Part shown: positions 5,261-64,000 of the stretch, piece by piece
How the letters are laid out: each line of letters starts with the position of its first letter
Position numbering within the stretch: position 1 is the stretch's first letter
From: Macrostomum lignano
Taxonomy: Eukaryota
Direction of reading: 5' to 3'
NCBI GenBank assembly: GCA_002269645.1
Contig: NIVC01000085.1
Coordinates: forward strand, 1,046,312 to 1,110,311
Length of the DNA stretch: 64,000 nt
Made by a program: the position numbers and the translations under genes
Notes under the pieces: generated by a model
What the model was told of the DNA's origin: nothing
Seen by the model: only the letters and a program-made list of their open reading frames with translations
Databases searched by the model: none

Positions 5261-6005
<745 letters not shown>

Positions 6006-7380: not shown

Positions 7381-7979
7381 CAATCTTATCCCTCAACAAT
7401 TGGAACAAAACATTCCGTTTCTGAAGTCAAGACGGCACACCGAGTTCTAAGCCAGTTTCACCTGTAGTTCACTTTTTTTATGTCTATATCAAATCGCATT
7501 TTTCAAAAATTATTCCACTCACATCAACCTGCCAAGTTGCATTACGGGCGATGCATTGACAAAAATGATTTGGAATTTATTCACCAACACAGATAGATAA
7601 AGAAAGTAGACAGGGAGGCTGAGAATGGCAGTGAGGGATGGCCTCATCCGCTGAGCTCACCGCGCCCCTCTCCCCGTGACCGTCCTGTAGGCAGCCGCAG
7701 CGGAAGTCACCCGTCAGAGGCTTTAAGAGAGGAACTGCGGGGAGAGGATCTGCCCGAGCTCATCCACCCAGCTCCCTGGCCGGCTGGGTGAGTCCAGTCT
7801 GTGTGTGTTTGTGTGCTTCTACTGTCATCGGGGCCGGCTGGGTTGCCTCTTCTTTGAACTCTCTGATATTTTATTACCTTTTGCTGCCACCTTTGCTTGT
7901 TTGAAGCAAAGAAAATTGAATTCGGCTTGAAGTGAAACACTGGCTGGTCTGTGTAACAGGTGACACACTAGACAAACAG

Positions 7980-8470
7980 GTGTCTAACAGGTGAGACTTC
8001 TGTCTAACAGGTGAGACTCCTGTCTAACAGGTGAGACTTCAGTCTAACAGGTGAGACTCCTGTCTAACAGGTGAGACTCCTGTCTAACAGGTGAGACTTC
8101 TGTCTAACAGGTAAGACTCCTGTCTAACAGCTGACACCCTAGTCTAACAGGTTAGACTTCTGTCTAACAGTTGAGACTTCTATTTAACAGGTGAGACTTC
8201 TGTCTAACAGGTGAGACTTCTGTCTAACAGGTGAGACTTCAATCTTACAAGTGGGACTTCTGTCTAACAGGTGAGACTTCAATCTTACAAGTGGGACTTC
8301 TGTCTAACAGGTGAGACTTCAATCTTACAGGTGAGACTTCTGTCTAACAGGTGAGACTTCTGTCTAACAGTTGAGACTTCTGTCTAACAGGTGAGACTTC
8401 TATCTAACAGGTGAGACTTCTGTCTAACAGGTGAGACTCCTGTCTAACAGGTAACACACTAATTTAACAG
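7980..8470. repeat. 20-nt minisatellite tgtctaacaggtgagacttc
   Basis: Visible tandem units. Confidence 0.9.
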
Positions 8471-8784
8471 GTGATACACTACACTGTATTCAGCTTTAAA
8501 CAACCAGTTTAAGTAACATTTTGAAAGAGAAAGCATGACAAAGCGCTCAGCCCTCCGGATTAGGTGCTGCAAAAACAGCTCATGTTTTCCACACCTATAA
8601 AAGCCTATGAGTAAAAAAACGTTGCTTTTTCAAATTCACAAAAGCATGCTGGCATCAAATTCGATGCACTTTGAGTACTTAGGCATAATCTCTATGTCTA
8701 GCATGCATTCATGAGAACACTGATACAGAGAAACAAAAATAGATACTGGTTTACGATTTCGAATTAAGAACTTCGACAACTCAC

Positions 8785-8995
8785 CTTTGTGAACGCCAGT
8801 GAACTTGTCCTTGAGCACGGTCAGCTCCAGGATCGCGCCGAACTCCTCAAACAGCGGTCGCAGATCGTCCTCCTCCATGGACCGGGGGATCTGGCCGACG
8901 AACAGCTTGATGCGTTCCCCCGACTTGCCGCCTCCCGTGGCGGCGGAGGCCACCGCGAGTTCCTGTCCGTTCGATGTGCTCACCCCGCTTACCAT
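8785..8995 (-). CDS. CELF: First coding exon of a CELF/Bruno-like (CELF3-6/unc-75 type) RRM protein
   Basis: MVSG...[42 protein letters not shown] matches CELF RRM1; phase-1 donor AAAG|GTGAGT at 8784. First in-frame ATG is 8995 (the ORF-track start at 9091 is GTG). Downstream exons not identified. Confidence 0.85.
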
Positions 8996-10969
8996 GGCTG
9001 GATGTCGGTGAGTCAGTCGGAATCCGGGTGCGATATCGGCAGGTGCAACGAGGTACTGCTGCTGCTGGTGCAGTGCTGGATAAGCTTCCACTTGTGCCGG
9101 CCAACTGAATTGCGCCCAACCCGACTGAGCAATGACTGCTGATTGGCGATGGAGCTGAATTTTCGAAAGGATTTTATTAAACCGGTTTGCTAAGCGAGTA
9201 CTTGACCGACCAGCTGGTTGTAGCGAGGCTTAGCCTGGAGCGATAGGCTTAAGGCCGCCTTGAAACAACAGTTTATTGTCGTCTGAGACGCCACCGGGTG
9301 AGCTCTCAGAACTGATCTGTCCTGATTGGATGCTGAGGTTCTCGGCAAGCGAATGGAAAGGATGAGGAGCTGAGGAGAGGCCTCTGATTATGATCATCCC
9401 ACTCCAAGCCCACCGCCTCACCGCCCCATCAGCAGCAGGTTTTTCTCCGATTTGCGTGTCAGTCGTTAGTCAATACAAACCAATCTGACAGTGTTTCAAT
9501 GTTAAATTAATTCGCTAATCTGAACCTTGGATGGCCGTCACCACGAAGGTCTCTCGTATCTTTTTTGCCATTCTTTTATCCATAAAGACGTCTTATTAAA
9601 TCTTTAATATCTCAAAAATCTTTCACAATATCTCTGACAGTTTGTCACTCTTCAGGTTGACGAGAAAAGGAAACGGATATGTTAATTCAGATAGAAAAAG
9701 CAAAAACTGCAGTTTATTGTGTGAAAAGAATTATTAACAATAATTTGCCTGCTTATAGCGCTTGTCTGTGCACACGTTTCATAGAAGTATTTTTTGTTTG
9801 AAAATTAAAAAAAACAAATCCTAATTAAGGCAAACAAACGATATGGGAAAATCAGCCTGTTTGGATCTCGTAAAACTCTCATGCAAAAAACCTCTGAAAA
9901 AGGGATATGAAATAGTAGAAACGTTCATCTATTACAAAAAGGGCCGAGTCAGAACTATCAGAAAAAAACAATCGTGTCTTGATAATTCGAGTCTTTTAGT
10001 AAGAGTTTCATTGATAATGTCCTGCCTTGATTTGCTACCAACAGGAAAATCTGGGAGTAGGGAACACTCAGAAGTTTCATTCTCACAGCCAAAAATCCTC
10101 TCTACATGTATATCTTGGTCACTACGAAAAACTGACTTTTGAAAAGCAAACAACATGGGTTGAAATCGTATAGAACGGAGCACAGGCTTTCTAAAAGACG
10201 TATTTTTTCAACATAGAGAGAAAAATAGATTTAATTTTGTTTTACTTTCTGTCTGATTATAAATTTGTTCCGCTTGAACGCGTCTGCAGGCGCTGGGGGG
10301 CATCAGGCGGCGTACGAGTCCTGAGGCCGCCAGACCTCCTTTGACTTGCCGCCCGGTTTGGCCAGAGCCGGCTCGCGTTTTGAGTACCTGAAATTGGGGG
10401 CAGCTGCTCGTTATAAATTTCTGCTTCTGCTATCTGCTCAAACAGCGCCGCAGTTAATTGGCGAGGAAATCGGGGGAAAAGATTCTTTTTGATCCGCAGC
10501 CTTGGGTGCAGATTTTGCTACGGAGCAACCAATGCAATATTTCATGATTAGCAGTCACTTGCCACCTGCTAATTTTTGCTCCCCCTAGAAGACAAATTCA
10601 GATTCTGTATAATTCTAGTTGATAAGGCCCAAATTTATGCTTGCAGCTTTTTTGCCTGTTTGATCTGCTGCTTGATGTCGCCAGGTGCCGGCAGCTCAGA
10701 CGCTGGTCTGATTGTTCTAATTAGCCACGTGGGCTGGAAGATTTTCGGCTGCAGAGGAAAAGACACCCGCTTCAATTTTTTTGCTTCGATGCGAAAATTG
10801 CTATCAAAATTGCTCCGACGATTTTTTGGGAGCATCCCTTGATTCAAAAACGTATATGCCACTTGGAAAGCTTACCATATGCTTTTTTAGCTATCGAAAA
10901 CTGTTGCGTTTGCCATACAAAGGTGGAAAACGGAGATTTAAACTTGCAATTTATAGACTTTACACTCAT

Positions 10970-11348
10970 GCGCAACCTTGGGAATCACTCGGCCGTTCCT
11001 ATTGGCAACACACACATGTAAGTCGCTATTGGACGGAATAGTAGTCACGTGACTGCTCTTGGCCAATAGCGACGTACATGTGTGTGTTGCCAATAGAAAC
11101 GGCCGAGTGATTCCCAAGGTTGAAAACGGCCTTGGGATTCCCAAGGGGAATATCCCAAAAAAATTCCCAAAAAAATCCCAAAAAAATCCTTGGGATTCCC
11201 AAGGATAGAAACGGCCGTTCCTATTGGCAACACACACATGTAAGTCGCTATTTGGACGGAATAGTAGTCACGTGACTGCTCTTGGCCAATAGCGACTTAC
11301 ATGTGTGTGTTGCCAATAGGAACGGCCGGGTGAATCCGTAGGTTGCGC
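10970..11348. mobile_element. Foldback/MITE-like element made of two tandem ~115-bp palindromes
   Basis: Arms GGCCGTTCCTATTGGCAACACACACATGTAAGTCGCTATTGG and their reverse complement flank a central AGTCACGTGACT, twice; outer ends GCGCAACCT...AGGTTGCGC are inverted. Confidence 0.7.
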
Positions 11349-12203
11349 CCAAGCATGTAGACTTAAACAAGTTTAAACAATCAGGGACTTTTATGTAAAC
11401 TTAAGCTCATGAAGTGGAGTCCCTAATTGTCCCCTTGCCTGTTCTCTGCTATCCCAGGTCCAATTTTTGTTACTTTTTTGCCAAATCCAGCTTCCGTAGC
11501 CAATCTACCGAGGGGTGTCCCAAAAGTTCCCGGAATGTTTGCTCTAGCTCCGATCGGTACCTTGACCAATTTTTACGTTTTATGTGTCAAACTAAAGATA
11601 ATTTTGCAACGAAAAAACTTGTACCAGTGTTAGACAATCTCGAATGTCTGTGGTGTCATTTTTCCGTCATCAATTTTTAGGAATTAGAACCAGTAAAATT
11701 GCTGGTCAGATCTAGTGGTGTCAGCGCTTGCTTAGTCCATACTAAATGCTTGCTTTCGGCTAAAGATTATAAGATGATTCCTCTCTACATCCTTGAGAGT
11801 CAGCGGAGTCAAGTTTTCGCCCTGTGGTCTGCAGGATGGAGTGGAGCCAAAATTGCTAATCATCTTTTCTCAATCCATGGTGAGAAAAGGATTAAGAAAA
11901 AAAGCTATTTACAAATGAATCCAACAGTTCAAGGATGGCCAGTCCACTTTGAATGACCAGCAGCCACGCTCTCGCCGCCTCGACATGGGCGGTCTATTAA
12001 CTTTCATTTCAACGATCGGCACGCGTCAAAATATTTTACTATCTTGTGCTGGCGTTAAAAAATGGGATCTTAGATTGCATCTCAGCAGTGCATCGATCTT
12101 GAGGGTGCCACACCTGACGTCAGCTTGCAGAGGGTTTGCCGTATTTCTATTTTATCGATTTTTTATCCAATGGATAAAGTCATTGGTTTTAAAACAATCG
12201 CTC

Positions 12204-12620
12204 TTACTTCAATTTAGCTCCAGTTTTCGCCTTCTTGTCCGAATTCTTGCCGCCTTTGGCTCCGGCAGCCGCCTTTGCTGGCTTCTGTTGTTGCTGCTGT
12301 TGCTCCTTCTGCTTCGGCTCCTTCTCTTGCCGAGACGTCTTGGCTCCTGCCACGGGTTTCGCCTCAAGCTTCTTCTCAGCCGGGGCCTGCGGCTGCTCCT
12401 CAGGCTGACACTGGGCTTGCTCATGATGGTGACCGTGCAGGTGAGACTCCGATGACTCGGCGTCCTCAATCACGAGGCGGTCGACCCGTTTCGGTCGGTC
12501 GGGATCCTCCGCAATTGGTGGCAGGTGCAAATCCTCGCGAATGTTGGTGGGCTGGAAGACCTCGCCAGTGGGGTCCGCCTGAGTGGAGGGGCCGACAGGT
12601 TTGGTGGGTCTTGAGACGTG
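12204..12620 (-). CDS. TBATA: TBATA/SPATIAL-like protein, exon 4 (last; Lys/Gln/Ala-rich tail)
   Basis: Phase 0 continues exon 3; the acceptor (GAG preceded by CTAAT) is less canonical; stop at 12204-12206. Confidence 0.55.
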   Translation of the reverse strand, partial: HVSRPTKPVGPSTQADPTGEVFQPTNIREDLHLPPIAEDPDRPKRVDRLVIEDAESSESHLHGHHHEQAQCQPEEQPQAPAEKKLEAKPVAGAKTSRQEKEPKQKEQQQQQQKPAKAAAGAKGGKNSDKKAKTGAKLK

Positions 12621-13097
12621 CTCAGATAAATTAGTACAGAGAAGCAGGTTGCATATAGGACACAAATGTATAATCAACACAGTCAACAGTAGCTCTTGAG
12701 CGATGCATCACGTGACAGAATCGAGGCCATAGATTGGTTGAGCTACTGCTAACTGCTAGCTGCTAAGCTTCGTGAAATCGGCCCCTGGCGGGTCATAGCA
12801 GACAAATCAGTTGGTAGAGTTTAGGCAGCATAAACAGACTCGTGAATTCTACTAGTTGTTGAGTGGCACCACACTTAGAGAGCCCAAAAAACTCATAAAC
12901 AAAGCTACATGCAAAATACAGTTTACTAGAATCGTGTGATCACAAAACTTTTCGTCTCGCTCCGCTAGTAGCTTCGCGAGTCCAGGATTGCTCAAATCAA
13001 TTTAGCTCGTACAGATGGTTCAGACCCATTATAAAATTGGTTTGAGCAATCTTTGAACTACAGAGCTACTGGTGGTAACATAGCAGCCGGTCCTCAC

Positions 13098-13450
13098 CTC
13101 GTAGTACGCAGCTTTGTTAGCCACAGCAGATCGGATAACGTCCATGACGAGCGCCTTCTCTCGATCGGAGGCGCTCACCAGCCAAGCCTGGACGGCGTTG
13201 AAATCCTCGGTCTGTAGAATCTGGCAGAGCATGCTGAACACCGCGGACTCGAGGTCCGGTGCGACGCTGATGTGCTCGTAGTTGGACAGCACGTGGGCCG
13301 GCGTGGAACGACGGGATGAGCGCAGCGGACGACGCGACATTGCGCGTGACGGTGGCGGAATCAGCCGCCCGGTCTGTCGACTGTACATCGGCCTGGCCGT
13401 CTGTGACTGCTCCGGCTGCTGCTGGCGGGCTGGGTCAGGATAGGTGGCCT
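13098..13450 (-). CDS. TBATA: TBATA/SPATIAL-like protein, exon 3
   Basis: YSRQTGRLIP and LCQILQTEDFNAVQAWLVSASDREKALV match TBATA motifs; CCGCAG acceptor, GAG|GTGAGG donor, phases compatible. Confidence 0.8.
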
Positions 13451-14309
13451 CTGCGGATTGGTGAAGTTGTTTGGTGCACGAATTAAGGTTTAGTGAGTTT
13501 TTAGCCCTGGCGAAATGAGTAGATAGGCAAAGTTGACCGATAACATTAATGTAAATGGTTAAACTAATATTTACACATTGGTTGGATCTGCATTGCCGAT
13601 GCTGTTAAGAGTTTCATTGGTGGAGTCCAATTGGTAGATATTGGTAGATTTACTTTGGTAGAGTTCTATTGGTAGAGAATGGTAGACTCCGGTTGGTAGA
13701 GTTCTATTGGTAGAGAATGGTAAAGTCCCGTTGGTAGAGTTCTATTGGTAGAGAATGGTAGACTCCGGTTGGTAGAATTCTATTGTTAAAGTCCTAGAGC
13801 CAGTTCTATAAAGCCATCGTAAGATAAGATCGTTCTTAGCTCCCATCTCCGCAGTGTAAAAGTTCTGGCGTACGATCCAACTTACGCTACGACAGCTTTA
13901 TAGTACGACCCGCTAGTTAATTCATTTGAGAGACTTCTATTGGTAGAGTTTCATTGGCAGAACTCCACTGACAGAACTGGCCAAACTGTTGAAGATCTAT
14001 CGACTACATCTTAAGAATTTTACATTTATATCAACATCATACGAAGTAACACGCGTATTCAAATTAAATGATGCTTAAAGTTACTGCTCTCCTTCCAATG
14101 ATGCTACTTTAGTAGTGTTTAGAAATTTTTCGTCTAAATTCTAAATCGACTACCAACTGCAAAGCTGGCTTAGAAGCCAGTAAAAAGTCAGACAGCGCGC
14201 GTTTTAGTAATTGAACAAAATATATTTAGACGATAACAAACAAAGCATACAAATATATTGTAAACGATTGTGATAATTTTAGAAAACAATTTTTCTCTGC
14301 CGTCACTCC

Positions 14310-15491
14310 TCAATAGCCCTTCTTCCGACTGCCGTAGCCGTTGTCGCTGTACTTATAGTTGCCATACTTGTCCTTAGGCGCCTTGTACAACAGCTTGCGC
14401 TTGCCGCCCTTCGGGCTCTCCAGGTAGTGACTAACCACGCGAGGCTTGCCGTACTTGTCGAGCTCTTCTTCGATCACCTCGTCGTAGTCGTAGTCGCCGC
14501 CATAGAAACTGTCGTAGTAGTCGTCGAATCCGTAGTCGTCGAACAGATCGAGCAGGTCCAGGTAATCTTCGCCGCTGTAGTCGTCAGCGTAGTCGTCGTC
14601 ATAATACTTTAACTTATCGTAGCCCTTGGCGTAGCTGGGTTCATAGCCCTTGCCATAGCCATCGTCCTTGCCGTAGCTCTTGCCGTAGCTCTCGCGGTAG
14701 CTCTTGCCGTAGCCCTTGTCGTAGTCATCGTCCTTGCCATAGCTCTTGCCGTAGCTCTCGCGGTAGCTCTTGCCGTAGCCCTTGTCGTAGTCATCGTCCT
14801 TGCCATAGCTCTTGCCGTAGCTCTCGCGGTAGCTCTTGCCGTAGCCCTTGTCGTAGTCATCGTCCTTGCCATAGCTCTTGCCGTAGCCCTTGCCATAGCC
14901 ATCGTCCTTGCCATAGCTCTTGCCGTAGCTCTCGCGGTAGCTCTTGCCGTAGCCCTTGTCGTAGTCATCGTCCTTGCCGTAGCCCTTGTCATAGTCATCG
15001 TACTTGCTGTAACGCTTGCCGTAGCCCTTGTCATAGTCATCGTCCTTGCCGTAGCTCTTGCCGTAGCTCTCGCGGTAGCTCTTGCCGTAGCCCTTGTCGT
15101 AGTCATCGTCCTTGCTGTAACGCTTGCCGTAGCCCTTGTCATAGCCATCGTTCTTGCCGTAGCTCTTGCCGTAGCCCTTGTAGTCATCGTCCTTGCCATA
15201 ACGCTTGCCGTAGCCCTTGTCATAGCCATCGTCCTTGCCGTAGCTCTTGCCATACCCATCGTTCCTGTCGTAGCTCCGGTCATAGGCCTTTTCATAGCCG
15301 TCGTCCTTGTCGTAGCCCTTGGCATAGCGATCATCCTTGCCCTTACCGTAGCTCACACCCGAGCTGTAAGGTTGCTGATATCCATCGTAGGTGTTGGTGC
15401 CTCTGACAATGCCATGATCGCCGTGCGAATCAACCAGGCCTAGCCCGCAAGCCAAGGCTAGCAGAGCCAGCCGATTTAAGCTAGTTCTCAT
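14310..15491 (-). CDS. Secreted Tyr/Gly/Asp/Lys-rich repetitive protein (eggshell/vitelline p48-like structural protein), 393 aa, intronless
   Basis: Signal-peptide-like MRTSLNRLALLALACGLGLVDS, YGKSYGKDDDYDKG repeats, acidic Tyr-rich block, basic C-terminus; TATAAAA box at 15570-15576 on the minus strand. Confidence 0.8.
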   Translation of the reverse strand: MRTSLNRLALLALACGLGLVDSHGDHGIVRGTNTYDGYQQPYSSGVSYGKGKDDRYAKGYDKDDGYEKAYDRSYDRNDGYGKSYGKDDGYDKGYGKRYGKDDDYKGYGKSYGKNDGYDKGYGKRYSKDDDYDKGYGKSYRESYGKSYGKDDDYDKGYGKRYSKYDDYDKGYGKDDDYDKGYGKSYRESYGKSYGKDDGYGKGYGKSYGKDDDYDKGYGKSYRESYGKSYGKDDDYDKGYGKSYRESYGKSYGKDDDYDKGYGKSYRESYGKSYGKDDGYGKGYEPSYAKGYDKLKYYDDDYADDYSGEDYLDLLDLFDDYGFDDYYDSFYGGDYDYDEVIEEELDKYGKPRVVSHYLESPKGGKRKLLYKAPKDKYGNYKYSDNGYGSRKKGY

Positions 15492-15569
15492 ACTGTTCCA
15501 AGTGCTGCTCAAAATTATCAAAATGGTAGACGTGAGCAACAGTCCCGAAAACCATTAGACTTCAGACCA

Positions 15570-15576
15570 TTTTATA
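15570..15576 (-). promoter_or_regulatory. TATA box (TATAAAA) upstream of the Tyr-rich gene
   Basis: About 80 nt upstream of the ATG at 15491. Confidence 0.4.
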
Positions 15577-16469
15577 GGATCAGAGTTAAGCTTTATAAAT
15601 TATACTAGCTAAAGATTACGTTTCACACACTGCGCTACGCTTAGGGGTTGGGGGTCACGCCAGTGGCTGCAATTGGCTGGCTGAACAGGCCGACCACCCC
15701 CCTCACTGCAGCCCCGTTCCCTTCCCGCGTTCAAAGTCAACCCATCGCACCTATCGCACCCTTGGCTGGGGAGGGGGGGGGTAGAAAAACTGTCAGGCAG
15801 CGTATCGGCTCTCAGCCAATCAGATCGCGCCACTTAACCACAGACGCTGATTTTAGATGACTCACAGCGTACGCACTCTATTGGATATGTTAGTAAAAAT
15901 ATTTGGAAGGTTAAAAATACGCTTTTTGTTGATAACCTAAAACAAACATATTTGGTTAAAGTGCATTTTGACACTTAAGAGCAAACTTCTACAAAAAAGA
16001 AAAAAATTAAACGCTTCTTTTACTCTCTGATTCTGATTTCTCCAATTTGTGATTATTAAATATGCTGGCGTGTGTCCAAGAAAGGAAATTGATATTAATA
16101 ATTCTCCTATATACTCAGCAACATTGAAAAGTCGCCACTCTATGCGACCAGTGAGCAATTTCTCTGGGACTATTCTGAAATTTAAAAGACACGAGAAAAT
16201 AGATCGGAGTAGCTTTAATCCCTCCAACCCTCGCACACCGCTCCCCCAGTTCATTCCTCAACTCAAGGCTGCCGCGGCGGAGCTGAGTTGCGTCACTCGC
16301 AAAGATTGAGAGACTTTACCTGCGCTCTTAAAAGTGGCGACCACAGACGGAATCTTCTGTGATGGCGAGTTTACAATGTTGCTAAGTATATATATATTTG
16401 TATCGACAATGAACTGCTGGGGCGTCATGGACTTTTAAAAGTCGTAATTTTGTGCCAGCTGAAAAAATA

Positions 16470-24507: not shown

Positions 24508-26415
24508 ATGACGCAGGAACAATTCGGTTCGAGTCTGGCCGAATCACAACGAGCGGCGTATCTGTTCAGCCTCCTGGACACTGACGGATCCGGCTTCATC
24601 ACCGAGTCGGACCTCGCTCGCTGCTGCGACGGTGATCTTAGGCCAGATGAGGTCCGACAGATCTTCGCCCAGCTGGACGAAGACGGCGACGGCCGGGTTG
24701 ACGCGGCCGACTTTCAGGCCGGCTTCAGGGCCATCGGCCTGTCATTGGCCTCCCGTGAGTTGCACAACCAGCATCAGCATCATCACCAGCAGTTGGCAGC
24801 TGGCCAGGCCGGCAGCTCTCTGAGCATGAAGGCCTTCTCCCAGGAGCGGCTACTAGACGTTGACGAGCCCCAAGAGCTGCGACAGCCGCCGCAGCAGCGT
24901 AGCGGTGCCAGCGGTGCAGACCTCGAGCAGCAGCTGACCGAGGGACTTCAGCAGCTCAGCTGTCAAGAGAAAGTCTGCGAGCTGCACTGCCTGTTGCAGC
25001 GCCAATACCCCCAGCTTGTAGACAGCTTCGAGTCCATTATTGTCAGTGCAGCCAAGGAGGTCGGAGCTCAGCGTCGCGAACGTCAACGACTCGAGGAGGC
25101 CTTTGCCAGAGCCAAGGCGGCCAACGAGAGCCACGTGCGCCAACTGGAGGAGGAGATGGAGATCCAGATGACCAAGTTGGAGCAGCGGGCGAGAGCGCAG
25201 GAAAGACGCCGGCTGGCCGAGCAATACCAGGACCTGCTGGACAGAAAGCAGGCCGAAATCGACGAGCTGCAGACGATGATCGACGAACTGCAGCGTCGAC
25301 GAAGCCGACAGGATGCCGCGGATGCCACTTCAGAGGTCGGGTTACGACGCAGCGTCGAAGAAACCAGGGAGCGAAACCAGAGTCTCTTAGCGGACATGCA
25401 GAGGCTGGAGACGGCGCTAGCGGTAAGCCGCAGCGAGCTCGCTCGAATGCGCCAGGACCAGGAAGGCCGGACCCGGGAGCTGCTGGTCGAGAGAAGAAAT
25501 CTTCAGACCTACCAGCGCGATCAGGAGCAGCTGGCACTACAGCTGCGGCTGCTACAGCAGGCCAACCGGAGTCTAAGCGACACCAACGACAGTCTGCGCT
25601 GCGCTCTTGAGCGCCAATACAGCGGCGTCAGCAGCGGCGGTGGCGGAGGTGGCGCTGTCACGCCGTCGTCCGGACGAGGCAGCTTCTGTCGCCCCGTGAG
25701 CAGCGTCGGCACCGCCGCGGCCGCGGAGGAATTTTGCGAAGACGGGGTGGAGAGAAGAGTGGGTCTGAGCACCGAGCTAGATGAGGATGACGAGGAGGTT
25801 GACAGCGGAATGTCGACCTGTCGCGACGATCAGCGACAGTCCATGGCTTCTGCCGCCGACTTCCCGGATCACTTTGTAATCCCTTTTGGCGGCGGCGGCG
25901 GCAAAGGCTTTGGGTACGATTTTACCGACGAAGAAGTAGAAGAGGATGAAGAAGGTCTTCACTCCACCCGAGAGACTCTGGTCGATTGTGGAGCTCGGGA
26001 GCGGAGCTCGGCGACCGCTCAACAGCTGGACGATTGCTATATGTACTCCGAAGCGCAGGAGGACGGAGAAGTCATCCGTCATCGCCAGCCGTTGCGCAGC
26101 AGTCGAAGGCATCGGCAGCTCCGTCGGTGTCCTCAGCCTCATCAGATGGGATATCCGGAGGAAGAGGAGGAGGGCGCTGAAGTGGATCAGGCAGAGTCAA
26201 TTGCTGAGTCGGTTGCCATGTCGCCACTCGAGCGCATGTTCAAGGTGGTGTTGGCAGGCGACGCGGCAGTGGGCAAGAGCAGCTTCATTGGACGATTTTG
26301 CGATGGTCGATTCTCTGCCAACACGACGGCCACGCTGGGCGTAGACTTCAAGACTCGGACGCTGGTAGTGGACGGTCGAGTTGTGGCCGTACAGCTTTGG
26401 GACACGGCCGGCCAG
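24508..26415 (+). CDS. RASEF: RASEF/Rab45-like large Rab GTPase, exon 1 (EF-hands, coiled coil, start of Rab domain)
   Basis: EF loops DTDGSGFIT and DEDGDGRVD; G1 GDAAVGKS; TLGVDF; WDTAGQ|GT donor at 26416. Confidence 0.9.
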
Positions 26416-26507
26416 GTTAGAAAAAACTTCCCTAACTAATTGTCCGCATATTTTCTGTCGAACGGCCTTTGCATTCTCCAGTTTCTTGTAGCCATTGTCA
26501 AACTCAA

Positions 26508-34144: not shown

Positions 34145-34600
34145 CATGACTTGACTTACCTGCAGGGTGGTCTGTACACACAGCGGGAAGGCCAGGGTTG
34201 CCCATTCCGCTAGCCCCTTAAGGTCCGCAGACAGGCAGATTCGTGGGGGGGGGGCGGTCAGGGTGGTCCGCCGGTCCATCCCTTAGCGTGATCTTCCATA
34301 GGGAAGAAAGTGGCTCGTCTTGTCGCCTGGAGGAACTGGATGAGCCGTGGGGATGCTGTCGGACTTGCAGACCTCGTAAATAGACGGGCTTGGCCCGAGG
34401 TAGCGTAGCCGGTCTCTGCAGTAAAGAAAGGGCAGTGACAAACAAAGTGCTGAGCATCTTCATTGTAATACTCGCATAAAGGGCAAAGTTCACTCTCGAG
34501 GTCGCCTCGAATGAAGTAGTGTCTGGCGAGGTAGCCATGGCCTGTAACCTCATGACACGGGCTCGAATATCCTTCCGATTTCGGTTCAGGACCTTCAAAT
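34145..34600 (-). mobile_element. 5'-truncated non-LTR retrotransposon 3' end (ORF2 C-terminal zinc knuckle; I/R1/Loa-like), intronic
   Basis: TGHGYLARHYFIRG...CPLC...EDAQHFVCHCP is the typical LINE ORF2 CCHC region; frameshift just upstream. Confidence 0.65.
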
Positions 34601-34674
34601 TGTCTACCAAATTTTCTTGTCACACTTTTACCTTTGTCTACCGAATTTCTACCGATTTGCACCCCACTCAGCAG

Positions 34675-36996
34675 GTGGAAGCCAAGCCCAACGTGAAGAA
34701 GATGCGACTGGGCGGCACCTGGGCGGAGATCGAGCGAGCCGAGCGAGAAGCGGCTCAGGCTGAGTCCCAGCAAACGGTTGGCAGCAAGAAGACCATGCGC
34801 ATCGGCAACGAGAGCTGGCACGAGAAACAGGCCAGTAGTGAGAAACAGGCCGCGGTTGTTGAAGAGGAACGCGTCGGAACGAAGAAGGTCATGCGGGTTG
34901 GCAGCGAAAACTGGCACGAAAAGCAGGCGGTCGCTGCTAACAACGACGTGGTGGACGAGAAGACTGGCACTAAAAAGGTCATGCGAGTTGGCAGCGAGAA
35001 CTGGCACGAGAAGCAGAAGACAGTTGTTCAAGCAAATACGCTCGCGACTCGGGTTGGCACCCGAAAAAAGATGCGCATTGGAAACGAGAACTGGCACGAG
35101 AACCAACCGACGGCCACTCAAGAAGCTGTCATTAAGGAAGAGAAAGAAGAGAAAGTCGGAACTAGGAAGAGCATGAGGATCGGCAGTGAGAACTGGCACG
35201 AGAAACAGACGGTAGTTGCCGCTGTTGCGGTTCAAGAGAAGGAAGAAGAGAAGGTCGGAACCAGGAAGAGCATGAGGATCGGCAGTGAGAACTGGCACGA
35301 GAAGCAGGAGGCTGTTGTCGAGCAGAGAAACGAGCGTCTGTCCCCACGAGGAAGGAAGATCATTCTAGAACCAGTGGAGCAGACATCTGAGGTTGTGCTG
35401 GAAACCCAGAAAGCAGAGAAGGTGAAACAGGAGGACAAGCGAGTCGCTGAAAAGGCTCAAGCCAGAGACGCTACTGTAATTCAAGTCACAGAGAAGGCTG
35501 AGCAGCGAAAGCATCTTGAACCGATTGTCCAACAAAAGACTGGAACAGTTATTCAGGTTCAGGAAGAAAAGAAAATTGTTCTGCAACAAGAACGAAAAGA
35601 GCCTTCCCAAGTTGAGGTAAAGGCAGAAGCAAAGGCTGAAGTGAAGCAAACGGAGAAAGAGAAAGTCGTTTCCAAGGTTGAAGACAAGACCGAAGCTAAG
35701 GAGAAGCAGAAAATTGAGGTTAAAGCCGAGGTTAAAGCCAAGGAGAAGCAAAATTTTGACAATAAAGGCGTCGTTGTCGCTGCAGCAGTAGCACCAAAGG
35801 TTGAGGTTAAAGCCGAGGACAAAACGAAAGCTGAGGTCAAGGTTGAGGCAAAGCAAAAAGCCGAGGTCAAGGCCGAGGTCAAGGCTGAGGAGAAAAAGAA
35901 AGTTGAGGTCAAAGCCGAAGAAAAGCAGAAAAATGAAAGTAAGGGTTTTGCTTTGGCAGTTGGTGTCTCAGCAAACAAGGCTGAAGAAAAGGTCGAAGAA
36001 AAAAAGAAGGCTGAAGTCAAAGCCGAGGTCAAGGCCGAGGAGAAAAAGAAGGCTGAGGTCAAGGCCGAAGTGAAAGCCAAAGACAAGCAGAAGGTTGAAA
36101 ACAAGGGCTTTGCTTTGGCAGTCGGTGTGTCAGCAAACAAAACTGAAGAAAAAAAGAAGGCCGAGGTCAAGGCCAAGGTCAAGGCTGAAGAGAAGCAGAA
36201 AGTTGAAAGCAAGGATTTGGCTTTGGCGGTCGGTGTCTCAGCGAACAAGGCTGAGGCAAAAGTAGAAGACAAAAGTAAGTCAGAGATCAAGGCTGAAGTC
36301 AAGGCAGAAGAGAAAAAGGAGTCTGACAGCAAGGATCTATCAGTAGGTTTCGGCATTTCCGCAAGCAAGACGGAAGCAAAGGTTGAAGAGAAGAGCAAAG
36401 CAGAGATTAAGGCTGAAGCGAAGACTGAGGACGTAAAAACGACAGAAGAAAACGCTATGGCTATTTCTGTAGCCGCCAGCAAAGCTGAGAGCAAGATTGA
36501 GGAGCAGGTCAAGGCTGAAGTCAAGGCTGAAGAGATATCTGCCAAGGTCGAGACTAGCTCGGAAGAGAAAACTGAGACGGAAGAGAAGACAGATGTAAAA
36601 GTTGAGGAGAAATCTGAAGCTGCATCGGTAAGCGTAACTGCAGACGTCAGTAGCAAGTCCGACACCAAGTCTGAGACCAAATCTGAGAAGCAATCGAAAT
36701 CGTCATCGAAATCGGTGAGCAAGTCGGAAAGTCAGTCAGTGAGTCGCACTCGCACAGAGGCCACGGATGAGCTTGGAGGCCTGATAAAGATGCTGGACAG
36801 TCAGGTGGACCGTCAGCTAAACAGCATCAATGGTCCATCGGAGCCGCCAGCCCCTGACCCGAAAGTGGACGCCGCCATGCAGAAGATTTTGCACAAAGAT
36901 TTTCAAAGCAAAGTTGACGCGTTCATTAGCAGCAGTGAGTACGACGCCAATGGAGGCTTTTTTGAGTCGTGCAAAAAACTCGCTAAAGAGATCTGA
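34675..36996 (+). CDS. Repeat protein of unknown function, exon 2 (MRIGSENWHEKQ repeats, then Lys/Glu/Ala/Val KAEVKAE region)
   Basis: 2.3-kb open frame with protein-level repeat conservation and synonymous variation; CAG acceptor at 34674. Confidence 0.8.
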   Translation: MEAKPNVKKMRLGGTWAEIERAEREAAQAESQQTVGSKKTMRIGNESWHEKQASSEKQAAVVEEERVGTKKVMRVGSENWHEKQAVAANNDVVDEKTGTKKVMRVGSENWHEKQKTVVQANTLATRVGTRKKMRIGNENWHENQPTATQEAVIKEEKEEKVGTRKSMRIGSENWHEKQTVVAAVAVQEKEEEKVGTRKSMRIGSENWHEKQEAVVEQRNERLSPRGRKIILEPVEQTSEVVLETQKAEKVKQEDKRVAEKAQARDATVIQVTEKAEQRKHLEPIVQQKTGTVIQVQEEKKIVLQQERKEPSQVEVKAEAKAEVKQTEKEKVVSKVEDKTEAKEKQKIEVKAEVKAKEKQNFDNKGVVVAAAVAPKVEVKAEDKTKAEVKVEAKQKAEVKAEVKAEEKKKVEVKAEEKQKNESKGFALAVGVSANKAEEKVEEKKKAEVKAEVKAEEKKKAEVKAEVKAKDKQKVENKGFALAVGVSANKTEEKKKAEVKAKVKAEEKQKVESKDLALAVGVSANKAEAKVEDKSKSEIKAEVKAEEKKESDSKDLSVGFGISASKTEAKVEEKSKAEIKAEAKTEDVKTTEENAMAISVAASKAESKIEEQVKAEVKAEEISAKVETSSEEKTETEEKTDVKVEEKSEAASVSVTADVSSKSDTKSETKSEKQSKSSSKSVSKSESQSVSRTRTEATDELGGLIKMLDSQVDRQLNSINGPSEPPAPDPKVDAAMQKILHKDFQSKVDAFISSSEYDANGGFFESCKKLAKEI

Positions 36997-52705: not shown

Positions 52706-53074
52706 GGCGACAAGCTCGTAATCGTAAGCGATCCCAAAACTAGATGATAAATTAATTAGCTAAACAAATTATATGTGAATTGATATCATCCAATTGCCTG
52801 AAAATAACTCAGAAAAGTTGTTTTAGTCTATGATAAATGTGTCAATTCTACTTGAAATGCAATGATGAGAACATCGCACCATCCCGTTCGTAACAATCTA
52901 CCATGAGCTGCAATTTTTCACTGACAACAGCTAAAGCTGTCCATCCATGCCTGGACTCAGTCTGCTACAAATAATACCAATTGCTGTCTTTATTCTTATC
53001 GCTGCAGAAGGAGGTTAGTACAAATGTTTAATTTGCTCTTTACTTAAATGCTTTGCAAACCAATCATTTACCTT

Positions 53075-53345
53075 AGTAGTATAGAAAAAGACGCTTCTAG
53101 ACCCAGAGCACTTTTTTAATGACCGTTTTAAGGGTCTAGAGGGGGGACACGGGGGGTAAATAAAAAAACACATCTAAACACCCTTAACACATCTAATCAC
53201 CCATAATCACCCCTAACAATAAAAATCACTTCCCAACACTTCCAAACACTCCCCAACACCCCCCTCGCGTCCCCCCTCTTAAGACCTTACAAACGGCCAT
53301 TAAAATAAGGTCTGATCTGTAAGCGTCTTTTTCTATACTACTACT
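53075..53345. repeat. Terminal imperfect palindrome (~82-87-bp arms, outer 22 bp perfect)
   Basis: AGTAGTATAGAAAAAGACGCTT at 53075-53096 and its reverse complement at 53321-53342. Confidence 0.9.
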
Positions 53346-53427
53346 CTATAACCCCTTGCCCGCGCCGCAGGCGCGAAGGGTCGGAAAGAATAGAAGCTAT
53401 TTATAGTCAGCTCACCTACCCACCCAA

Positions 53428-53525
53428 CATTCCATTTAGACCAGATTTTAGACCAAATTTTTGAAAACGAAAACCAAAACGATAGTCTAGTTTTGTTTGG
53501 TCTAAAATCTGGTCTAAATGGAATG
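53428..53525. repeat. Perfect 30-bp inverted repeat with 38-nt spacer
   Basis: CATTCCATTTAGACCAGATTTTAGACCAAA at 53428-53457 and its reverse complement at 53496-53525. Confidence 0.95.
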
Positions 53526-55053: not shown

Positions 55054-58000
55054 ATGGAAGCAATTTTAGCTCAAATCGACAACCCTGAACTTAGAGCGCA
55101 ATTAATAGCTCAAATCGATGCACAACGAATTGCCGATAGGGCTGAAATAGAAGCAAGAATTAGGGCAGAAAATGAGATACGTTTAGAAAGACAATTAAAT
55201 GATATTAATAACCCCCAACCACAAGGACAAAATGGAGCTGAAGTAATATATATAGATATAGATATAAATACAAATTATAAAGAATATTTTAAACAAATGA
55301 AAGATAAATTAAAGACCATATTAAACAATTATACTATAAGGCCAAATAACAAACGACAGCCAATTAAGTATAAAATAGAAGTTGAAACAGAATTTAAAAA
55401 ACCAAATATTCTTAATGCAAATTCAGAAATTGAAGTAATAAATAACTTTTCACAAGAATCATATAAAACATTATTATCACTGGGAAATTACAACAATCAA
55501 TTCGATCAAATAGAAGCTGAGTTTGATGAATGGATAGATAAGATGACAGAAAACGGATCTGGGTTTATATTTGTTTCATGCAATTCAGCAACAGTAAAGA
55601 TTGCACCCATAGAAATTCTTAAAGGACGATCACATATGAAGCTCAAATTTAAATCACCTATGATTATAAATCCAGACAATAAAGATAATAAATGTTTATT
55701 ATGGTGTTTATTAATTCATAAATATCACAATCAAGTAGAATCACACATTAATAAAATATATAATTATAGACAATATGAGGATGAAATAATAATGAAAAAC
55801 ATATCATACCCAGTAGCAATAGATGATATATATAAGATTGAAAAAATGAATGGTTTAAATATTAATGTGTTTACAATTGAAGAACCAAAAGATCTAGAAG
55901 AAATTTTAACCGATCGGACGGAGTCCGCGATCGATCCAGAATGGTATAAGAAAAGGTGTTATCTTGTTAAGCCAGCAACTGATATAACAGCACCAGATCA
56001 AATCGATCTTTTGTACATGCAGCGCGAAAATGAAACACATTATATATACATAAAAGATATTAGTTCTTTTTTAAGAGAAAATAGAAATAGATATCCACTA
56101 TGTAGAAATTGTTTTACATTTAAAAAGGATGAAACAGCTCTTAAAAACCACCAACGATTTTGTTTAGATCACAAATTTACTAATGCTATAATGCCAGCAT
56201 CTGAAGATGCAACCCTAATGTTCCAACAACATTATATGGCAGTTAAAAAACCAATAGTAATATATGCTGATTTTGAAGCAACAAATGTTCCCTTAAAAGA
56301 ATCACAGACGGTATCTGATGACGGTGAATGCACAAAAAAATTGGCACAACAGTTTCCGAATAGTTATTGTATATATGTACACTCTGTAGCTGATCATATA
56401 TTTAAATCAAGGATGATTACTTACCACGGTAATGATGCAGCTAAGCACATGGCAGAATCATTAGTAAATGTATTTGAATATATTCAAAATCAATATGATA
56501 AATTATCAAAAAATATTAATATGACAAATAAGGATAGAGACAATTATAAAAATGCAACAAATTGTTTTATGTGCAAAAGACATTTAAGTAAGAATAATAA
56601 GATACGAGAACATTGTCATCTAACAGGAAATTATCGAGGGGCAGCATGTAGATCATGTAATGCAAAAGAAGGAAAAGGATGTAAGGAAATACCAGTATTT
56701 TTTCATAATGGTTCCGGATATGATTTTCATTTCTTAGTTCGAGAATTGCTTCATTTAGGAAAGGATGAATATGAAATAAATATATTACCTAAAACATCAG
56801 AAAATTACATATCAATAACATATGGTAAGAAATACTCCCATCTAGTTTTTCTAGATTCCTTGAGATTCTTATCAACATCTTTAGCAAATGTTGTTTCATC
56901 ATTAGTTCCAAAACCATGGGATTTAGAAATAGTAAAGAAAAACTTTCCAATACTATTGAATCGTTTCAAAAAGGAAAAACTATCCGAGGAAGAACTAATG
57001 CTATTAACTCGTAAGGGCATCTACCCATATGAATATGTAACATCTAAGAGGTATTTTTCATACCGAATTACCCCCAATTGAAAAGTTTTATTCAACATTA
57101 TCACAAACAAACATAAGTGAATCGGATTATGAACACGCTCAAAAAGTATGGAAATACTTTAATTGTAAAACATTTAAAGATTATCATAATCTATATCTTA
57201 AAGCAGATGTTCTCCTATTAGCTGATGCATTTGAAAACTTTAGGAATCATACATATGAGAATTTTAAAATTGATCCCGCATATTGTTTCAGTGCACCGGG
57301 ATTAACATGGGCTTGTGGTTTGAAACATACAGATGTTAAGATTGATTTACTAACTGATCATGATATGTTGTTAATGATTGAGAGAGGAATTCGCGGCGGA
57401 TTCTCGGGTACTAGGAGATAGATATACTAAAGTAAATAATAAGTATCTTCCAAATTATAATAAAAAAGAAAAATCATCATATGTATTATATCTAGATGCA
57501 AACAATTTATACGGTGGTTGTATGAAACAAAAATTACCAATAGCTGATTTCCAATGGGAAGATGACCCCGATTATTACAAAAATATTCCCGAAGGAAGGG
57601 GCTGTATCGTAGAAGTGGATTTGCAATATACTCGGGAAGCAAAAGCAAAAACATATAAATATCCTTTAGCTCCAGAGCATTGTTCAGTTAATGAAGATGA
57701 TTTATCACAAACACAAAAAGATTATCTTAAAGCAGATAATGCAAAACATCTAGCAACAAAAAAATTAATATTAAATTTACATGATAAGAAAAACTATGTA
57801 GTGCATTATAAGCTTCTACAATTTTATGAAAAACAGGGATTAAAAGTGTCTAAAGTACATCGAACAATATCGTTTATTGAGGAAGATTGGTTAGCTAAAT
57901 ATATTGACTTTAATTCAAATCAGAGACAGATGTCAAAAACAAATTTTGAGAAAGATTATTGGAAATTAATGAATAATGCTTTTTATGGAAAAACGGTTGA

Positions 58001-59024
58001 AAATATTAGAGATAGAACCCAATTCCATTTAGAAAAGGATATTGATAAAGCAAAGAAATATTTCTCAAAACCTAACTTTAAAGACTTTATAAAATTTGAT
58101 GATAACTTTATGGGTATTCATATGAGAAATAAAACAACAAAATTTCTTAAACCAATATTTATTGGAATGGTTGTTTTAGATTATGCAAAGCTGGTAATGT
58201 ATGAATACTATTATGATGTTATAAATAAAACATGGCCAGATAACTATCCAATATATGCAGACACCGACAGTTTGGTATTTAAGGTTGAAACAGATGACCG
58301 GACGGAGTCCGCGAACCAAAGGTTCGATGTCTATAAAGATATGGAAAAAATTAAGGATACATTGGATACCTCCGACTATCCGGATAACCATCCTTTAAAA
58401 TCAGATCAAAATAAAAAAGTTGTACTTAAAATGAAAGATGAATTAAATAGCAAAATCATAACCGAGTTTATAGCAATAAGATCAAAATGCTATGCATTTA
58501 AGGTTTTAGGACAGGAGGGAGAGGTAAAAAAAATAAAAGGGGTATCAAGAGCAGCAGTAAAAAAGATAACATTTGATGATTATAAAAACGTACTTTTAGA
58601 TTACCTTAATACAATTGAAAATTATCATGCTCCACAATATCGATTAAATTCAGATAAGCATCAGATGTTTGTCATCGAGACAGATAAAAAAACATTAAGT
58701 CCATTTGATGATAAAAGATATTTAGATGATAAAATTAAAACATATCCATATGGTTTAAAAGAAGAGATAAAAAATATGATAAAAGATAAAAAACAAAAAG
58801 AAGATATAATAAGTAAATATAATGAATACAAAGCGGCAATAAATAATTATTATTACGATTGTGATTGTGAATCCGAATGTGATTGTGAATATAATACATT
58901 TCTAGAATATGAAAAAGATATAGATAATTATTATTCAACATTTCCAAAAGAACTTAAAAAATTAAATAAGGAAAAAGTCTTGAATAACTGGAAGAGATTA
59001 ACAGAAAAATTACTTATCGGATAA
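55054..59024 (+). CDS. polB: Protein-primed family B DNA polymerase (Polinton type), about 1320 aa, frameshifted near 57050 and 57408
   Basis: ExoI IYADFEA, ExoII HNGSGYDFHF, ExoIII YLKADVLLLADAFENFR (in the intervening frame), GIRGG, motif A YLDANNLYG, motif B KLMNNAFYGK, motif C YADTDS, C-terminal DDKRY...PYG. Confidence 0.95.
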
Positions 59025-61234: not shown

Positions 61235-63268
61235 TTATATTTGAGTAGGAGGTTTTTCCAAATAAGCAGTAGAGGGAAAAACATAACCAAACGACGTACT
61301 ACCACATACAACCGCACCACGAATAAAATGTGCAGCATCCGATCCTCCAGTTCGAGCACCAAAACCCATAAGAGTTCCACTTTTATCCAAAGTTCCCCAA
61401 GTTCCACTATCATATGTGAAAACGTTCTGCCCAATGAGGGTAAAAGAATCACCAGCAACATTGTATGACTGTAATCGGTACCAAACCCTTTGATTTAAAA
61501 TATTAACTTCAAATAAATGCCAATCGCCGTTATCAATATTAGCATAGGCTACAGTTTGATCCGCATCACTACTAACATCGTTACGAACCGTAGATCCGTC
61601 TGATTTTTTATTACTCCAAACAACTCCAAACCTATCAGTCCACTCACTAGCAAACACTATCAGCCCGGCGTCGTTGATAATCCAGATCCAAATTCCGATG
61701 TTGGACGTTCGTGACAATATGCATAAAACCAAACCGCATCTGCACCATCTCCTGTAGAATTAGCAACTCGGAAAAAGAAAGACGCAGATATATTTTGAAA
61801 ATGTGTGAAATTGAATTGTAAAGCACCACTGACTCCAGAAGTTTCACGAGTAATTCTAGCGCCGTTTTGATAATCGATATAAGAAGCATCGCTAATTAAA
61901 GAACCGACTGGATATATATCTCCGGCGGTTGTTGGATTTTGATATCCAGACCAATTGCAAATTACTGGTTCGAACAAGGCCGCATCAATAGCAGGTATTC
62001 CATCCAATTTATTTTTATCGCTTCCAGACATTCTACCATTTGATGTTGGAGTAGCTAGCTGATCTACGTACGCTCGCGGAACTGCAGAAAGTATTTGAGT
62101 TGGCCAATTAAGATCTTGAATTTCAACACGGTGTTCAAATAATTGTATTTGACGAACCTCGATAGGTTGTGTACCGGTACCACCAGTTGGGAAGAATACG
62201 CTATAATATTTCCAAAAATTAGTCGTTAAATTAGATAGAGCAAATGATGTTGCTTGAACTGGTGATCCCGACGTAGTTAATGTGTCCATGAATCGGTAGC
62301 AACATTTTTTGCGCGAACCGACCACCCCGAGGGTATCTCAATTGTTTCACTGCCTGTAATTCTTAATTCAAATATTCTTCTATTATAACCTAAAAATTCA
62401 AATTGAATTTCCATATTGGTTGTGGTTCCGGTATTTGGTGACCATTGTGTCGCAAGGCTTCCATCTCCAACTCGAAAAGCTGTGTTGCCATTTTCAGATG
62501 CTGTAAGAACAACATCAGGATTTGAAGTATTTGATGTAAGCGGCGTGGTAAAAATATCGGCGTCGGTTGCATTAGCTCGCTCGTTTACTTGGCCTAGAGT
62601 TATCGAGTCTGCGTTCTCTGTTCCAAATAATAAATTTGTTAATTTAAAATTATTCATATTATTTCCACTACGAGTGGCAACTTGATTATCGACATAGTTC
62701 TTATCAACCACTGAATCACTAGTTGTAATTGAAACATTTATAATTCGGTTGTTGCTCATATCTAGGTTTCCGGTTGCGGTGGTTTGAACATAACGTGAAT
62801 CAGAATCAGTTCGAGAATAAGAATCAGTTACATCTCTTTTTAAATTTAATCCATTATCAACTTCGGTTTTGGTATAAGAATCGGCTACGTTCCGTTTCAA
62901 ATTTAATGAATTATCAACCTCTTTTTGGTATAAGAATCGGTATTCCGTTTAAATTTAATGAATTATCAACTTCGTTTTGGTATAGAATCGGCTGTATTGC
63001 GTTTTAAATTTAATGAATTATCAACTTCGGTTTTGGTATAGGAATCGGCTACGTTCCGTTTCAGATTTAGTGAATCATCTATTTGAGTTTTGGTATAGGA
63101 ATCTGCAACATTTCTTTTTAAATTTATTTATTATCAATTTCAGTTTTTTTATAACCTTCATCTCATTAATATATCGATTATCTCCAAATGTAACACTTAT
63201 TCCACCAGATGTGCCACCACCACCACTACTTGTTGTTCCGTTCCATGAGGTGTTCCAGAAAATAACAT
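61235..63268 (-). CDS. Fibre/receptor-binding-like protein, about 670 aa, multiply frameshifted
   Basis: Gly/Thr leader; about 6 LNLKRNVADSYTKTEVDNS repeats; MSNNRIINV...VDKNYVD and KLTNLLFGTENADSITLGQV stalk motifs; F5/8C-like domain; ATPTSNGRMSGSDKNKLDGI; L-lectin-like domain (FFFRV..GDGADAVWF, DNGDWHLFEV). Confidence 0.7.
62826..63150 (-). repeat. 57-nt (19-aa) coding tandem repeat in the fibre gene
   Basis: About 6 units encoding LNLKRNVADSYTKTEVDNS. Confidence 0.85.
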
Positions 63269-63278
63269 TTTTTACTGT

Positions 63279-63709
63279 CTATTTTATAGAGTCTAAAAAT
63301 ATTCTTAAATACTTCGGGTTTTTCGACATTATTAATTTTATATAAAAAATACAACGCCGCTTGCCCGCAATAACTTTTGTCAAATGTTTGAAATTGTTCG
63401 TGATGATCTCCACATAAACGATTTTTAGTATGATTAAATTTGGTTTTATTTCCTGTAACGGAGGAAGCGCGTATGAATCAAAAAAATAAACAAGTTTTGG
63501 TTTTGAATAAACTGCCACAATGAACACCTTTTCTTTTGTTGTTTCAATATTAACAATGAAAATCCATATTGTGGTAAGTCTTTGATCTCATCTCGCATAA
63601 CACATCTGAATGGTTTTATTTTTAACTGCCTCGCCCAATTTGTTAATTCGATATTGCTTGTTGTGTCCGTTCCATATCTTTGTTTAAAATCATCCCACGT
63701 CATGGTCAT
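63279..63709 (-). CDS. Adenain-type (Polinton PRO) cysteine protease, frameshifted
   Basis: Stitching frames gives ...VNIETTKEKGVH(W)VAVYSKPKLVYFFDSY...EQFQTFDKSYCGQAALYFL, i.e. an H-D-C triad with oxyanion Gln. Confidence 0.85.
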
Positions 63710-63910: not shown

Positions 63911-64000
63911 TTTTACTATAGGAAAGCAAAGTCCTCGAACCTGGTTCGGCTAACCTGTTTTATACGTAAATCACTGTTATTGACTGCCCACCAAAACTTA

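Follow-up and report, generated by a model that had tools for sequence, protein, structure and literature searches.

In the standing model of how an integrated Polinton recovers free, exact ends (as retold in the available text of PMC4046053 and of bioRxiv 10.64898/2026.07.28.741278), host replication exposes the element as a looped-out single strand, whose two TIRs anneal; excision by the integrase and protein-primed replication by the polymerase follow. This model needs pairing of TIRs that lie 15–20 kb apart, and a hairpin of 100–270 nt at the border would do so locally. The 64,000-nucleotide stretch of Macrostomum lignano DNA analysed here (the window) contains a Polinton end that carries an inverted copy of itself a short distance inside.

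The window end and its terminal palindrome

The end at 53075 is the left end of an integrated, decayed Polinton, a virus-like giant transposon, as a sequence-only reading of the window had held. The terminal AGTAGT bears this out, together with a shift in composition (GC falls from about 44–51% to 27–39% after 53 kb, and the CpG observed/expected ratio rises from 0.63 to 0.96) and a polymerase with terminal-protein (TP) and vOTU domains. According to the available text of PMC8097293, Maverick ends carry short tandem motifs, (AGT)2, (AG)3 or (AC)3A, of which AGTAGT is the commonest. The element is visible for 10.9 kb, its right end and right TIR lying beyond base 64000. Features of the end and of the visible genes are collected in Table 1.

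Table 1. Features at the Polinton end and in the visible part of the element (window coordinates)
Feature	Position	Strand	Basis or remark
Candidate left 6-bp target-site duplication, TACCTT	53069..53074	.	Sequence; not repeated after inner arm; partner would be at right end
(AGT)2 Polinton end motif, left end of element	53075..53080	+	Motif as in PMC8097293; GC and CpG shift
Outer arm of terminal palindrome, first 22 bp perfectly paired	53075..53156	+	Alignment, fold
TTCTA box, nt 21–25 of element	53095..53099	+	TTC[T/A] absent from the window's inner copy
Nested 9-bp stem in outer arm, 53096–53104/53132–53140, AGACC/GGTCT core	53096..53140	+	Weak, −8.0 kcal/mol
Loop of 104 nt, no G on + strand, degenerate 10- and 19-nt tandem repeats	53157..53260	+	
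Inner arm (the end copied in inverted orientation; no mismatch at 53321–53342)	53261..53345	-	Alignment
Nested 8-bp stem in inner arm, 53282–53289/53306–53313, AGACC/GGTCT core	53282..53313	+	Weak, −4.8 kcal/mol
Small GC-rich hairpin just inside palindrome	53353..53380	+	−11.2 kcal/mol for 53346–53400
Second inverted repeat, perfect 30 bp, 53428–53457/53496–53525	53428..53525	.	Fold −37.5 kcal/mol
First ORF, 150 aa	53523..53975	+	No family above cut-off
Protein-X-like core protein ORF, 281 aa	53986..54831	+	Pfam Adeno_PX E 0.008, below curated cut-off
Gene for protein-primed DNA polymerase B, broken into pieces in three reading frames	55054..59024	+	Homologues, Pfam, model
TP-like and vOTU domains of polymerase	55225–56100	+	Structure model
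EndoVII-like domain of polymerase	about 56515–56703	+	Pfam E 9e-7; weak PDB match E 0.38
ORF, probable piece of maturation-protease gene	63446..63709	-	No Pfam match

The window polymerase has 167 homologues, the best with 54% identity and the named ones from molluscs and a wasp, and a tblastn search with a piece of it gave no match in phage records. Its N-terminal 292 residues were modelled (pLDDT 82, with 21 sequences in the alignment), and the model resembles Y-family little-finger (little-finger/PAD) domains (Z 8.1, rmsd 3.1, 110 residues aligned) and OTU proteases (Z 7.7, rmsd 3.1, 95 residues aligned), with invariant Cys and His. These Z values are middling when taken alone, and the order of the folds matches that reported for Polinton polymerases, a TP domain followed by a vOTU domain (PMC11161782, available text). 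Foldseek returned no match to the model at E 0.001 or better, and a PDB profile search gave nothing relevant. As modelled, the window polymerase keeps both domains in the TP-vOTU layout of its family. No rve integrase was found in the first 10.9 kb of the element by tblastn with the integrase of a related locus (L013, below), and neither an ATPase nor a major capsid protein has a match in the same visible part. The minus-strand ORF near the right edge of the window we take to be probably a piece of the maturation-protease gene, a label given by eye. About six copies of a ~55-bp repeat lie at 62817–63154, between two minus-strand genes of the element.

The first 22 bp of the element (53075–53096) have an inverted copy on the minus strand with no mismatches, some 270 bp inside, just as the sequence-only reading had described. 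At up to three mismatches this terminal sequence has only two matches in the 64 kb, and none of 100 shuffles reaches two. The inner copy is longer by one AGT, running to 53345, and the flanking T at 53074 supplies a 23rd pair; the arms, each about 82 bp, align over 84–85 columns with 81% identity (E about 1e-14), in agreement with the extended inner copy and the imperfect match over about 80 bp that had been noted. The longest perfect stem in the 271-mer is 22 bp, compared with 10 bp for the best of 200 dinucleotide shuffles, and the fold energies of −56.2 kcal/mol (top strand, z −12.3) and −60.1 kcal/mol (bottom strand, z −12.5) were equalled by none of 200 shuffles. Each strand of the window end is thus predicted to form one long hairpin, with its stem base at the virus/host border, at element nt 1. 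The further hairpins reported within each arm do exist, as stems of 9 and 8 bp, but they are weak and, taken by themselves, do not reach significance (stems of at least 9 bp arise in 24 of 200 shuffles), they compete with the long stem such that both cannot form at once, and they look specific to the window's element.

Recurrence of the palindrome at related ends

Scanning GTDB genomes with a polymerase alignment gave 45 loci (L001–L045), many of which are probably eukaryotic DNA mis-binned into bacterial or archaeal MAGs. A recognisable end, defined as an end motif close to the polymerase gene where host and element sequence meet, is present at six of the 45, the other 39 being without flank or without a recognisable end; inspection by eye around GC shifts showed none in L001–L003, L005, L010, L016, L022, L036 and others, which stand outside the count of seven ends used here (six plus the window). 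An all-against-all comparison was dominated by satellites and defined no ends among the matches listed. No palindrome-bearing locus reaches its right end. Several of the 45 loci sit amid retroelement remnants and satellites.

A terminal palindrome is present at three of the six comparison ends (L020, L013 and L041), and so at four of seven with the window, a proportion biased upward because three of the comparison ends were first noticed through their palindromes. In L020 (NZ_CBDHHI010000001.1) AGTAGT is at 5614 and the inverted copy ends at 5742 (19 bp perfect, 129 nt overall), 150 bp upstream of an intact polymerase of 1248 aa. In L013 (CBDAUV010000066.1), which also encodes an rve integrase and an A32 ATPase and whose end adjoins a host retroelement remnant, ACACACA is at 4073 and the copy ends at 4231 (19 bp, 159 nt). 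In L041 ACACACA is at 2544 and the copy ends at 2647 (13 bp, 104 nt). The corresponding values for the window are 22 bp perfect and 268 nt. All four palindromes lie upstream of a pPolB gene, and in the three relatives the inner arm is 67–150 bp before the polymerase start codon.

The remaining three ends differ. No inverted copy of the end is found at L007 1088 (fold z 0.7); L009 5510, on the minus strand, has a 7-bp closure only, with a first 280 nt that fold well (z −5.8); and none was seen at L008 90, where the sequence has a 100-N gap. A quick polymerase tree of 56 rows, from which L041 and other loci with a best piece below 250 aa are omitted, puts the window, L020 and L013 each in a different supported clade, and groups L007 and L008 with L013, and L009 with L020. 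The palindrome-bearing ends therefore span three polymerase clades and two end motifs, and the palindrome is an optional add-on, not an essential part, because some close relatives do without it (L007, and L009 with its 7 bp). At L007 1088–1402 we also observe a 9-bp inverted copy of the box region (see below) just before the polymerase start codon.

As a control, among 180 AGTAGT sites (both strands, window and 45 loci) inverted pairs longer than 7 bp occur only at the window and L020 ends, and of 307 ACACACA sites six have a partner of at least 12 bp, two of them being the L013 and L041 ends and the other four lying in a host repeat at 11 kb in the window. A scan for motif plus box gave 39 rows, made up of the seven ends, two inner copies and 30 others, the last with at most 8 bp, not counted as ends and not vetted singly.

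The sequence-only reading had itself raised the prospect of a one-off rearrangement or an assembly fold-back, and this is refuted because the design recurs at other ends with compensated changes (below). Frame breaks in several ORFs might come from indel-prone reads, but the two window arms are 19% different, the loop between them is unique, normal viral sequence continues beyond, and the same design is present in three independent assemblies; an artefact of assembly or of reads folding back is scarcely credible. The terminal palindrome is real and recurrent.

It had also been proposed that the unit could be excised as a 270-bp mini-element, and a related possibility is that a non-autonomous mini-Polinton or MITE of about that size sits at, or was captured as, the element end. 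The unit does have both end motifs, like a miniature element, and palindromic host repeats are found nearby (L013 2736–2903; window 10973–11328). However, no target-site duplication surrounds it in any of the four cases (window, L020, L013, L041); in the window TACCTT upstream is to be compared with ACTCTA or CTATAA downstream of the 271-bp unit. No solo copy was found in the 477 kb of the window and 45 loci, and there is no further viral end inside the unit. Moreover, L013 and L041, which are 76% identical over 3542 columns, have different host flanks, and their homology nevertheless starts at the palindrome's first base and runs into the polymerase gene. The mini-element explanation is thus very improbable.

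Two palindromic MITE-like inserts were seen among the loci, at L005 4984–5261, where the polymerase gene is split, and at L013 2736–2903, which adjoins the host retroelement remnant; the former was considered as an element end and rejected, as it interrupts the polymerase gene. A host repeat at 10973–11328 of the window itself, built from a pair of ~120-bp palindromic units in which ACACACAC and AGTAGT occur, is probably a foldback element resembling a MITE.

Common anatomy and the case for a local fold-back

Sequence, loop and length (104 to 268 nt) vary freely among the four palindromes, and the constant features are structural. The stem base is element nt 1 in 4/4, and the terminal nucleotide is paired in 4/4. 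Between L013 and L041 seven of the first 28 outer positions differ and all seven stay paired through compensating changes; among the distant elements 9–17 of the first 19 positions differ, and nearly all of these stay paired. After pair 19 a single base of the inner arm is left unpaired in L020, L013 and L041, and in L013 it persists in a stem that is otherwise paired at 72 of 76 positions. In the window, pair 22 is followed by a mismatch of 2 nt. Arm differences avoid the stem base in the window (P about 0.017) and in L020 (P about 0.008), with no significant bias in L013 (P 0.36) or L041 (P 0.24). The bottom strand, which bears the 3' end, folds more stably in 4/4, with six G–T wobbles on the bottom strand and one on the top, although the sample is small, two of its members are related, and the bias depends on the alignment.

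A TTC[T/A] box, defined after inspection of the ends, is present at nt 20–22 in 7/7 outer ends. The inner copies of the window and L020 lack it, and in those of L013 and L041 it is displaced by +1. The lack of the box in the inner copy of the window weakens the suggestion that this copy is a second, outward-facing origin. Outer ends too can have the box at nt 22, as in L007 and L020, so the +1 shift in L013 and L041 need not inactivate their inner copies.

The palindrome is probably under selection. The reading that we favour, and hold with about even confidence, is that the ~270-bp terminal palindrome has been selected to form a hairpin in single-stranded DNA, by which a double-stranded end is restored locally so that excision or protein priming can take place. 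This was among the proposals of the sequence-only reading and is the best of them; the design is present at three of six other recognisable ends, with compensated changes. A strand exposed by looping out in host replication, or through displacement by the viral polymerase, would pair its end with the copy 100–270 nt inside, and not with the far TIR 15–20 kb away. Such pairing would restore about 20 bp of duplex precisely at the border, and most probably on the strand with the 3' end. Some 20 perfect pairs is about the size of an integrase attachment site or of a minimal protein-priming origin. The short duplex could then serve as an integrase substrate for cutting at the border, or as the start site at which a TP/polymerase complex begins protein-primed synthesis at (AGT)2. 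The break in pairing at nt 20–23 and the lost or shifted TTC[T/A] box would keep the inner copy inactive as an end in duplex DNA, such that it acts as a pairing partner rather than a second origin.

Paired changes may also arise without selection, by copying of one arm onto the other. The palindromes could accordingly be functionless but recurrent by-products of fold-back template switching in strand-displacement replication, with occasional copying between the arms maintaining their likeness. Their patchy presence and their range of lengths fit this, and accidental annealing is also listed as an alternative by the authors of a study of Halocafeteria viruses (bioRxiv 10.64898/2026.07.28.741278, available text). 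But copying between arms should erase the bulge, yet the bulge is fixed while seven flanking positions covary, and it recurs in the distant L020; furthermore, the window arms are 19% diverged and nonetheless perfect at the base. We regard a mere by-product as unlikely.

A rival explanation is a self-priming, parvovirus-like rolling hairpin. The 3' end would fold back and prime synthesis with no terminal protein involved; the end would then be resolved by nicking at the stem base or the bulge, perhaps through the EndoVII-like domain of the polymerase, with the palindrome flipped as a result, and the same domain could release the provirus by cutting a cruciform. Parvovirus terminal hairpins and poxvirus flip/flop hairpins have the same layout of end, spacer and inverted end with fixed unpaired bases; in those viruses the end primes its own synthesis, and Rep/NS1 or a resolvase carries out the resolution. 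No HUH Rep/NS1 nickase was found among the 10 window ORFs scanned. The fixed unpaired bases seen here resemble those hairpins, the terminal nucleotide is paired at the stem base as in a parvovirus-type end, and the 3'-end strand folds better. The EndoVII-like motif of the window polymerase aligns with T4 endonuclease VII (scores in Table 1), an enzyme that cuts junctions and bulges. Hairpin priming is also the model proposed, in the available text of the Halocafeteria study, for virophages and PLVs.

Several observations speak against the rolling hairpin. The polymerase retains its TP and vOTU domains and the ends retain slide-back repeats. The bulge falls in the inner arm in 3/3, all four outer arms have an intact box, and no flipped isomer was seen, the polarity being the same in all four ends (one copy each). 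The EndoVII motif was found 30 times across the loci and the window, and does not track the palindrome because L007, L008 and L009 have it too; a link between the domain and the palindrome was rejected as non-specific. Extrusion of a cruciform from duplex DNA would be unlikely with a 104-nt loop and 81% identical arms. Overall we consider the rolling hairpin possible though doubtful.

A further, speculative reading is that a subset of animal Polintons leaves the chromosome via a self-contained hairpin end, either by TP priming on the strand still joined to the host (copy-out without excision), or with the EndoVII-like domain nicking the stem base or the fixed bulge. If true, this would combine protein priming of the adenovirus type with terminal resolution of the parvovirus type, and would account for the recovery of exact ends by a virus integrated through an rve integrase.

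The last alternative places the signal in duplex DNA, with inverted binding sites for promoter factors or the integrase, for example, and the fold-back incidental. In the window AGACC occurs eight times in the first 456 bp, in inverted pairs, as compared with five times in the next 10.5 kb, and in the three relatives the inner arm lies close to the polymerase start codon. However, pairing is kept while the sequence changes, as the 9–17 substitutions noted above illustrate, and AGACC is not among the top repeated 5-mers of the other ends. Duplex binding sites thus seem quite improbable as the explanation of the palindrome.

Half of the eight AGACC sites fall within a second inverted repeat just inside the palindrome (Table 1); neither this repeat nor the AGACC clustering was part of the sequence-only reading. 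It contains four tandem TAGACC sites and two small hairpins in a 38-nt centre, and directly precedes the first ORF, overlapping its ATG. All 12 Rfam matches fall on it, each to a miRNA model and below the gathering score, and were rejected as generic hairpins. A long counterpart was not found inside the other recognisable ends. The terminal 456 bp as a whole has no match in phage records, and against the 45 loci gave only 20-bp chance matches, so the window's exact end has no close relative among these.

In the window (53343–53348) and L020 (5743–5745) the inner copy has ACTACT and then CTA, which is not matched in L013 or L041; it is as if the AGT-type inner copies had retained two or three bases past the integrated end.

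Relation to known ends

The closest systems are the Polintons/Mavericks (adintoviruses) with (AGT)2 or (AC)3A ends, which share with the window the end motif, the TP-vOTU polymerase and the protein-X-like gene; their TIRs are described as 46–1,500 bp with 6-bp end motifs and no inner inverted copy (PMC8097293, PMC10748475 and PMC8502044, available text). An inner inverted copy in Polinton TIRs is likewise not described in the available text of PMC11296320, PMC5803895, 10.1101/2024.01.15.575659 and 10.1101/2025.02.07.637071, and an earlier mention is possible. No end sequences were found in the supplements of PMC10748475 and PMC8502044, and only a motif table in that of PMC8097293; no TIR alignment was found in the available part of the supplement of PMC11414722.

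Terminal palindromes are nevertheless known in protist viruses. Endogenous virophages of Halocafeteria seosinensis (subtypes 1, 2, 5 and 6) and PLV subtype 4 have palindromes within the TIR adjoining the target-site duplication; these occur preferentially with non-pPolB replication genes, hairpin priming is proposed for them, and a global survey is called for (bioRxiv 10.64898/2026.07.28.741278, available text). The statement in the sequence-only reading that the feature is not a standard one of Polinton TIRs therefore holds for the Polinton papers searched, but terminal palindromes beside a target-site duplication are not new in themselves. Common to the two cases are rve-integrating viruses and a palindrome beside the target-site duplication, the stem base being nt 1 in 4/4 here next to a duplication that is a candidate only. 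The Halocafeteria palindromes belong to protist virophages and PLVs, measure 52 nt in subtype 5, and were detected at a gap limit of 10, with 4 mismatches (same source); those described here belong to animal Polintons with a protein-primed polymerase and have imperfect arms around loops of up to 104 nt, changes that compensate one another, and a bulge at a fixed position. The present ends thus extend terminal palindromes from protist virophages and PLVs to protein-primed animal Polintons, with compensation, the fixed bulge and the conserved box as added specific handles, and a local hairpin is testable with short oligonucleotides and purified proteins. Hairpin ends of this kind can also be mis-annotated as MITEs or break assemblies.

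Looser parallels are found elsewhere. Streptomyces telomeres are capped by a terminal protein, and the 'Rabbit Ears' fold allows the terminal 13 nt of the 3' single strand to base-pair with a copy further inside; they differ in having unrelated proteins (Tap/Tpg), several short palindromes and an internal origin, and end repair was found to use a form other than Rabbit Ears (PMC5449611, available text). Casposons are also self-synthesizing elements, some with internal palindromes in their TIRs, for which loop-out of single-stranded DNA and a panhandle have been modelled, but they are prokaryotic and use a Cas1 integrase, and their palindromes are not stated to include the very end (PMC4046053, available text). 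Bidnavirus ends do not form hairpins (PMC4061559).

Further repeats were noted in the course of the analysis. Host DNA in the window (1–52710) is minisatellite-rich, with 88 tandem-repeat rows in the window, and a 20-bp tandem array ends 365 bp before the Polinton end; long ORFs in this DNA are at 34537–36996 (819 aa, overlapping repeat arrays) and 24508–26439 (643 aa). L013 has a ~4.7-kb tandem duplication (6641–10871 and 11384–15629) of the C-terminal part of the polymerase and the integrase, within one element. Finally, two related elements share a conserved 63-bp palindrome, 18 bp of it perfect, just downstream of the polymerase stop codon (L025 11316–11378 and L031 11582–11644).
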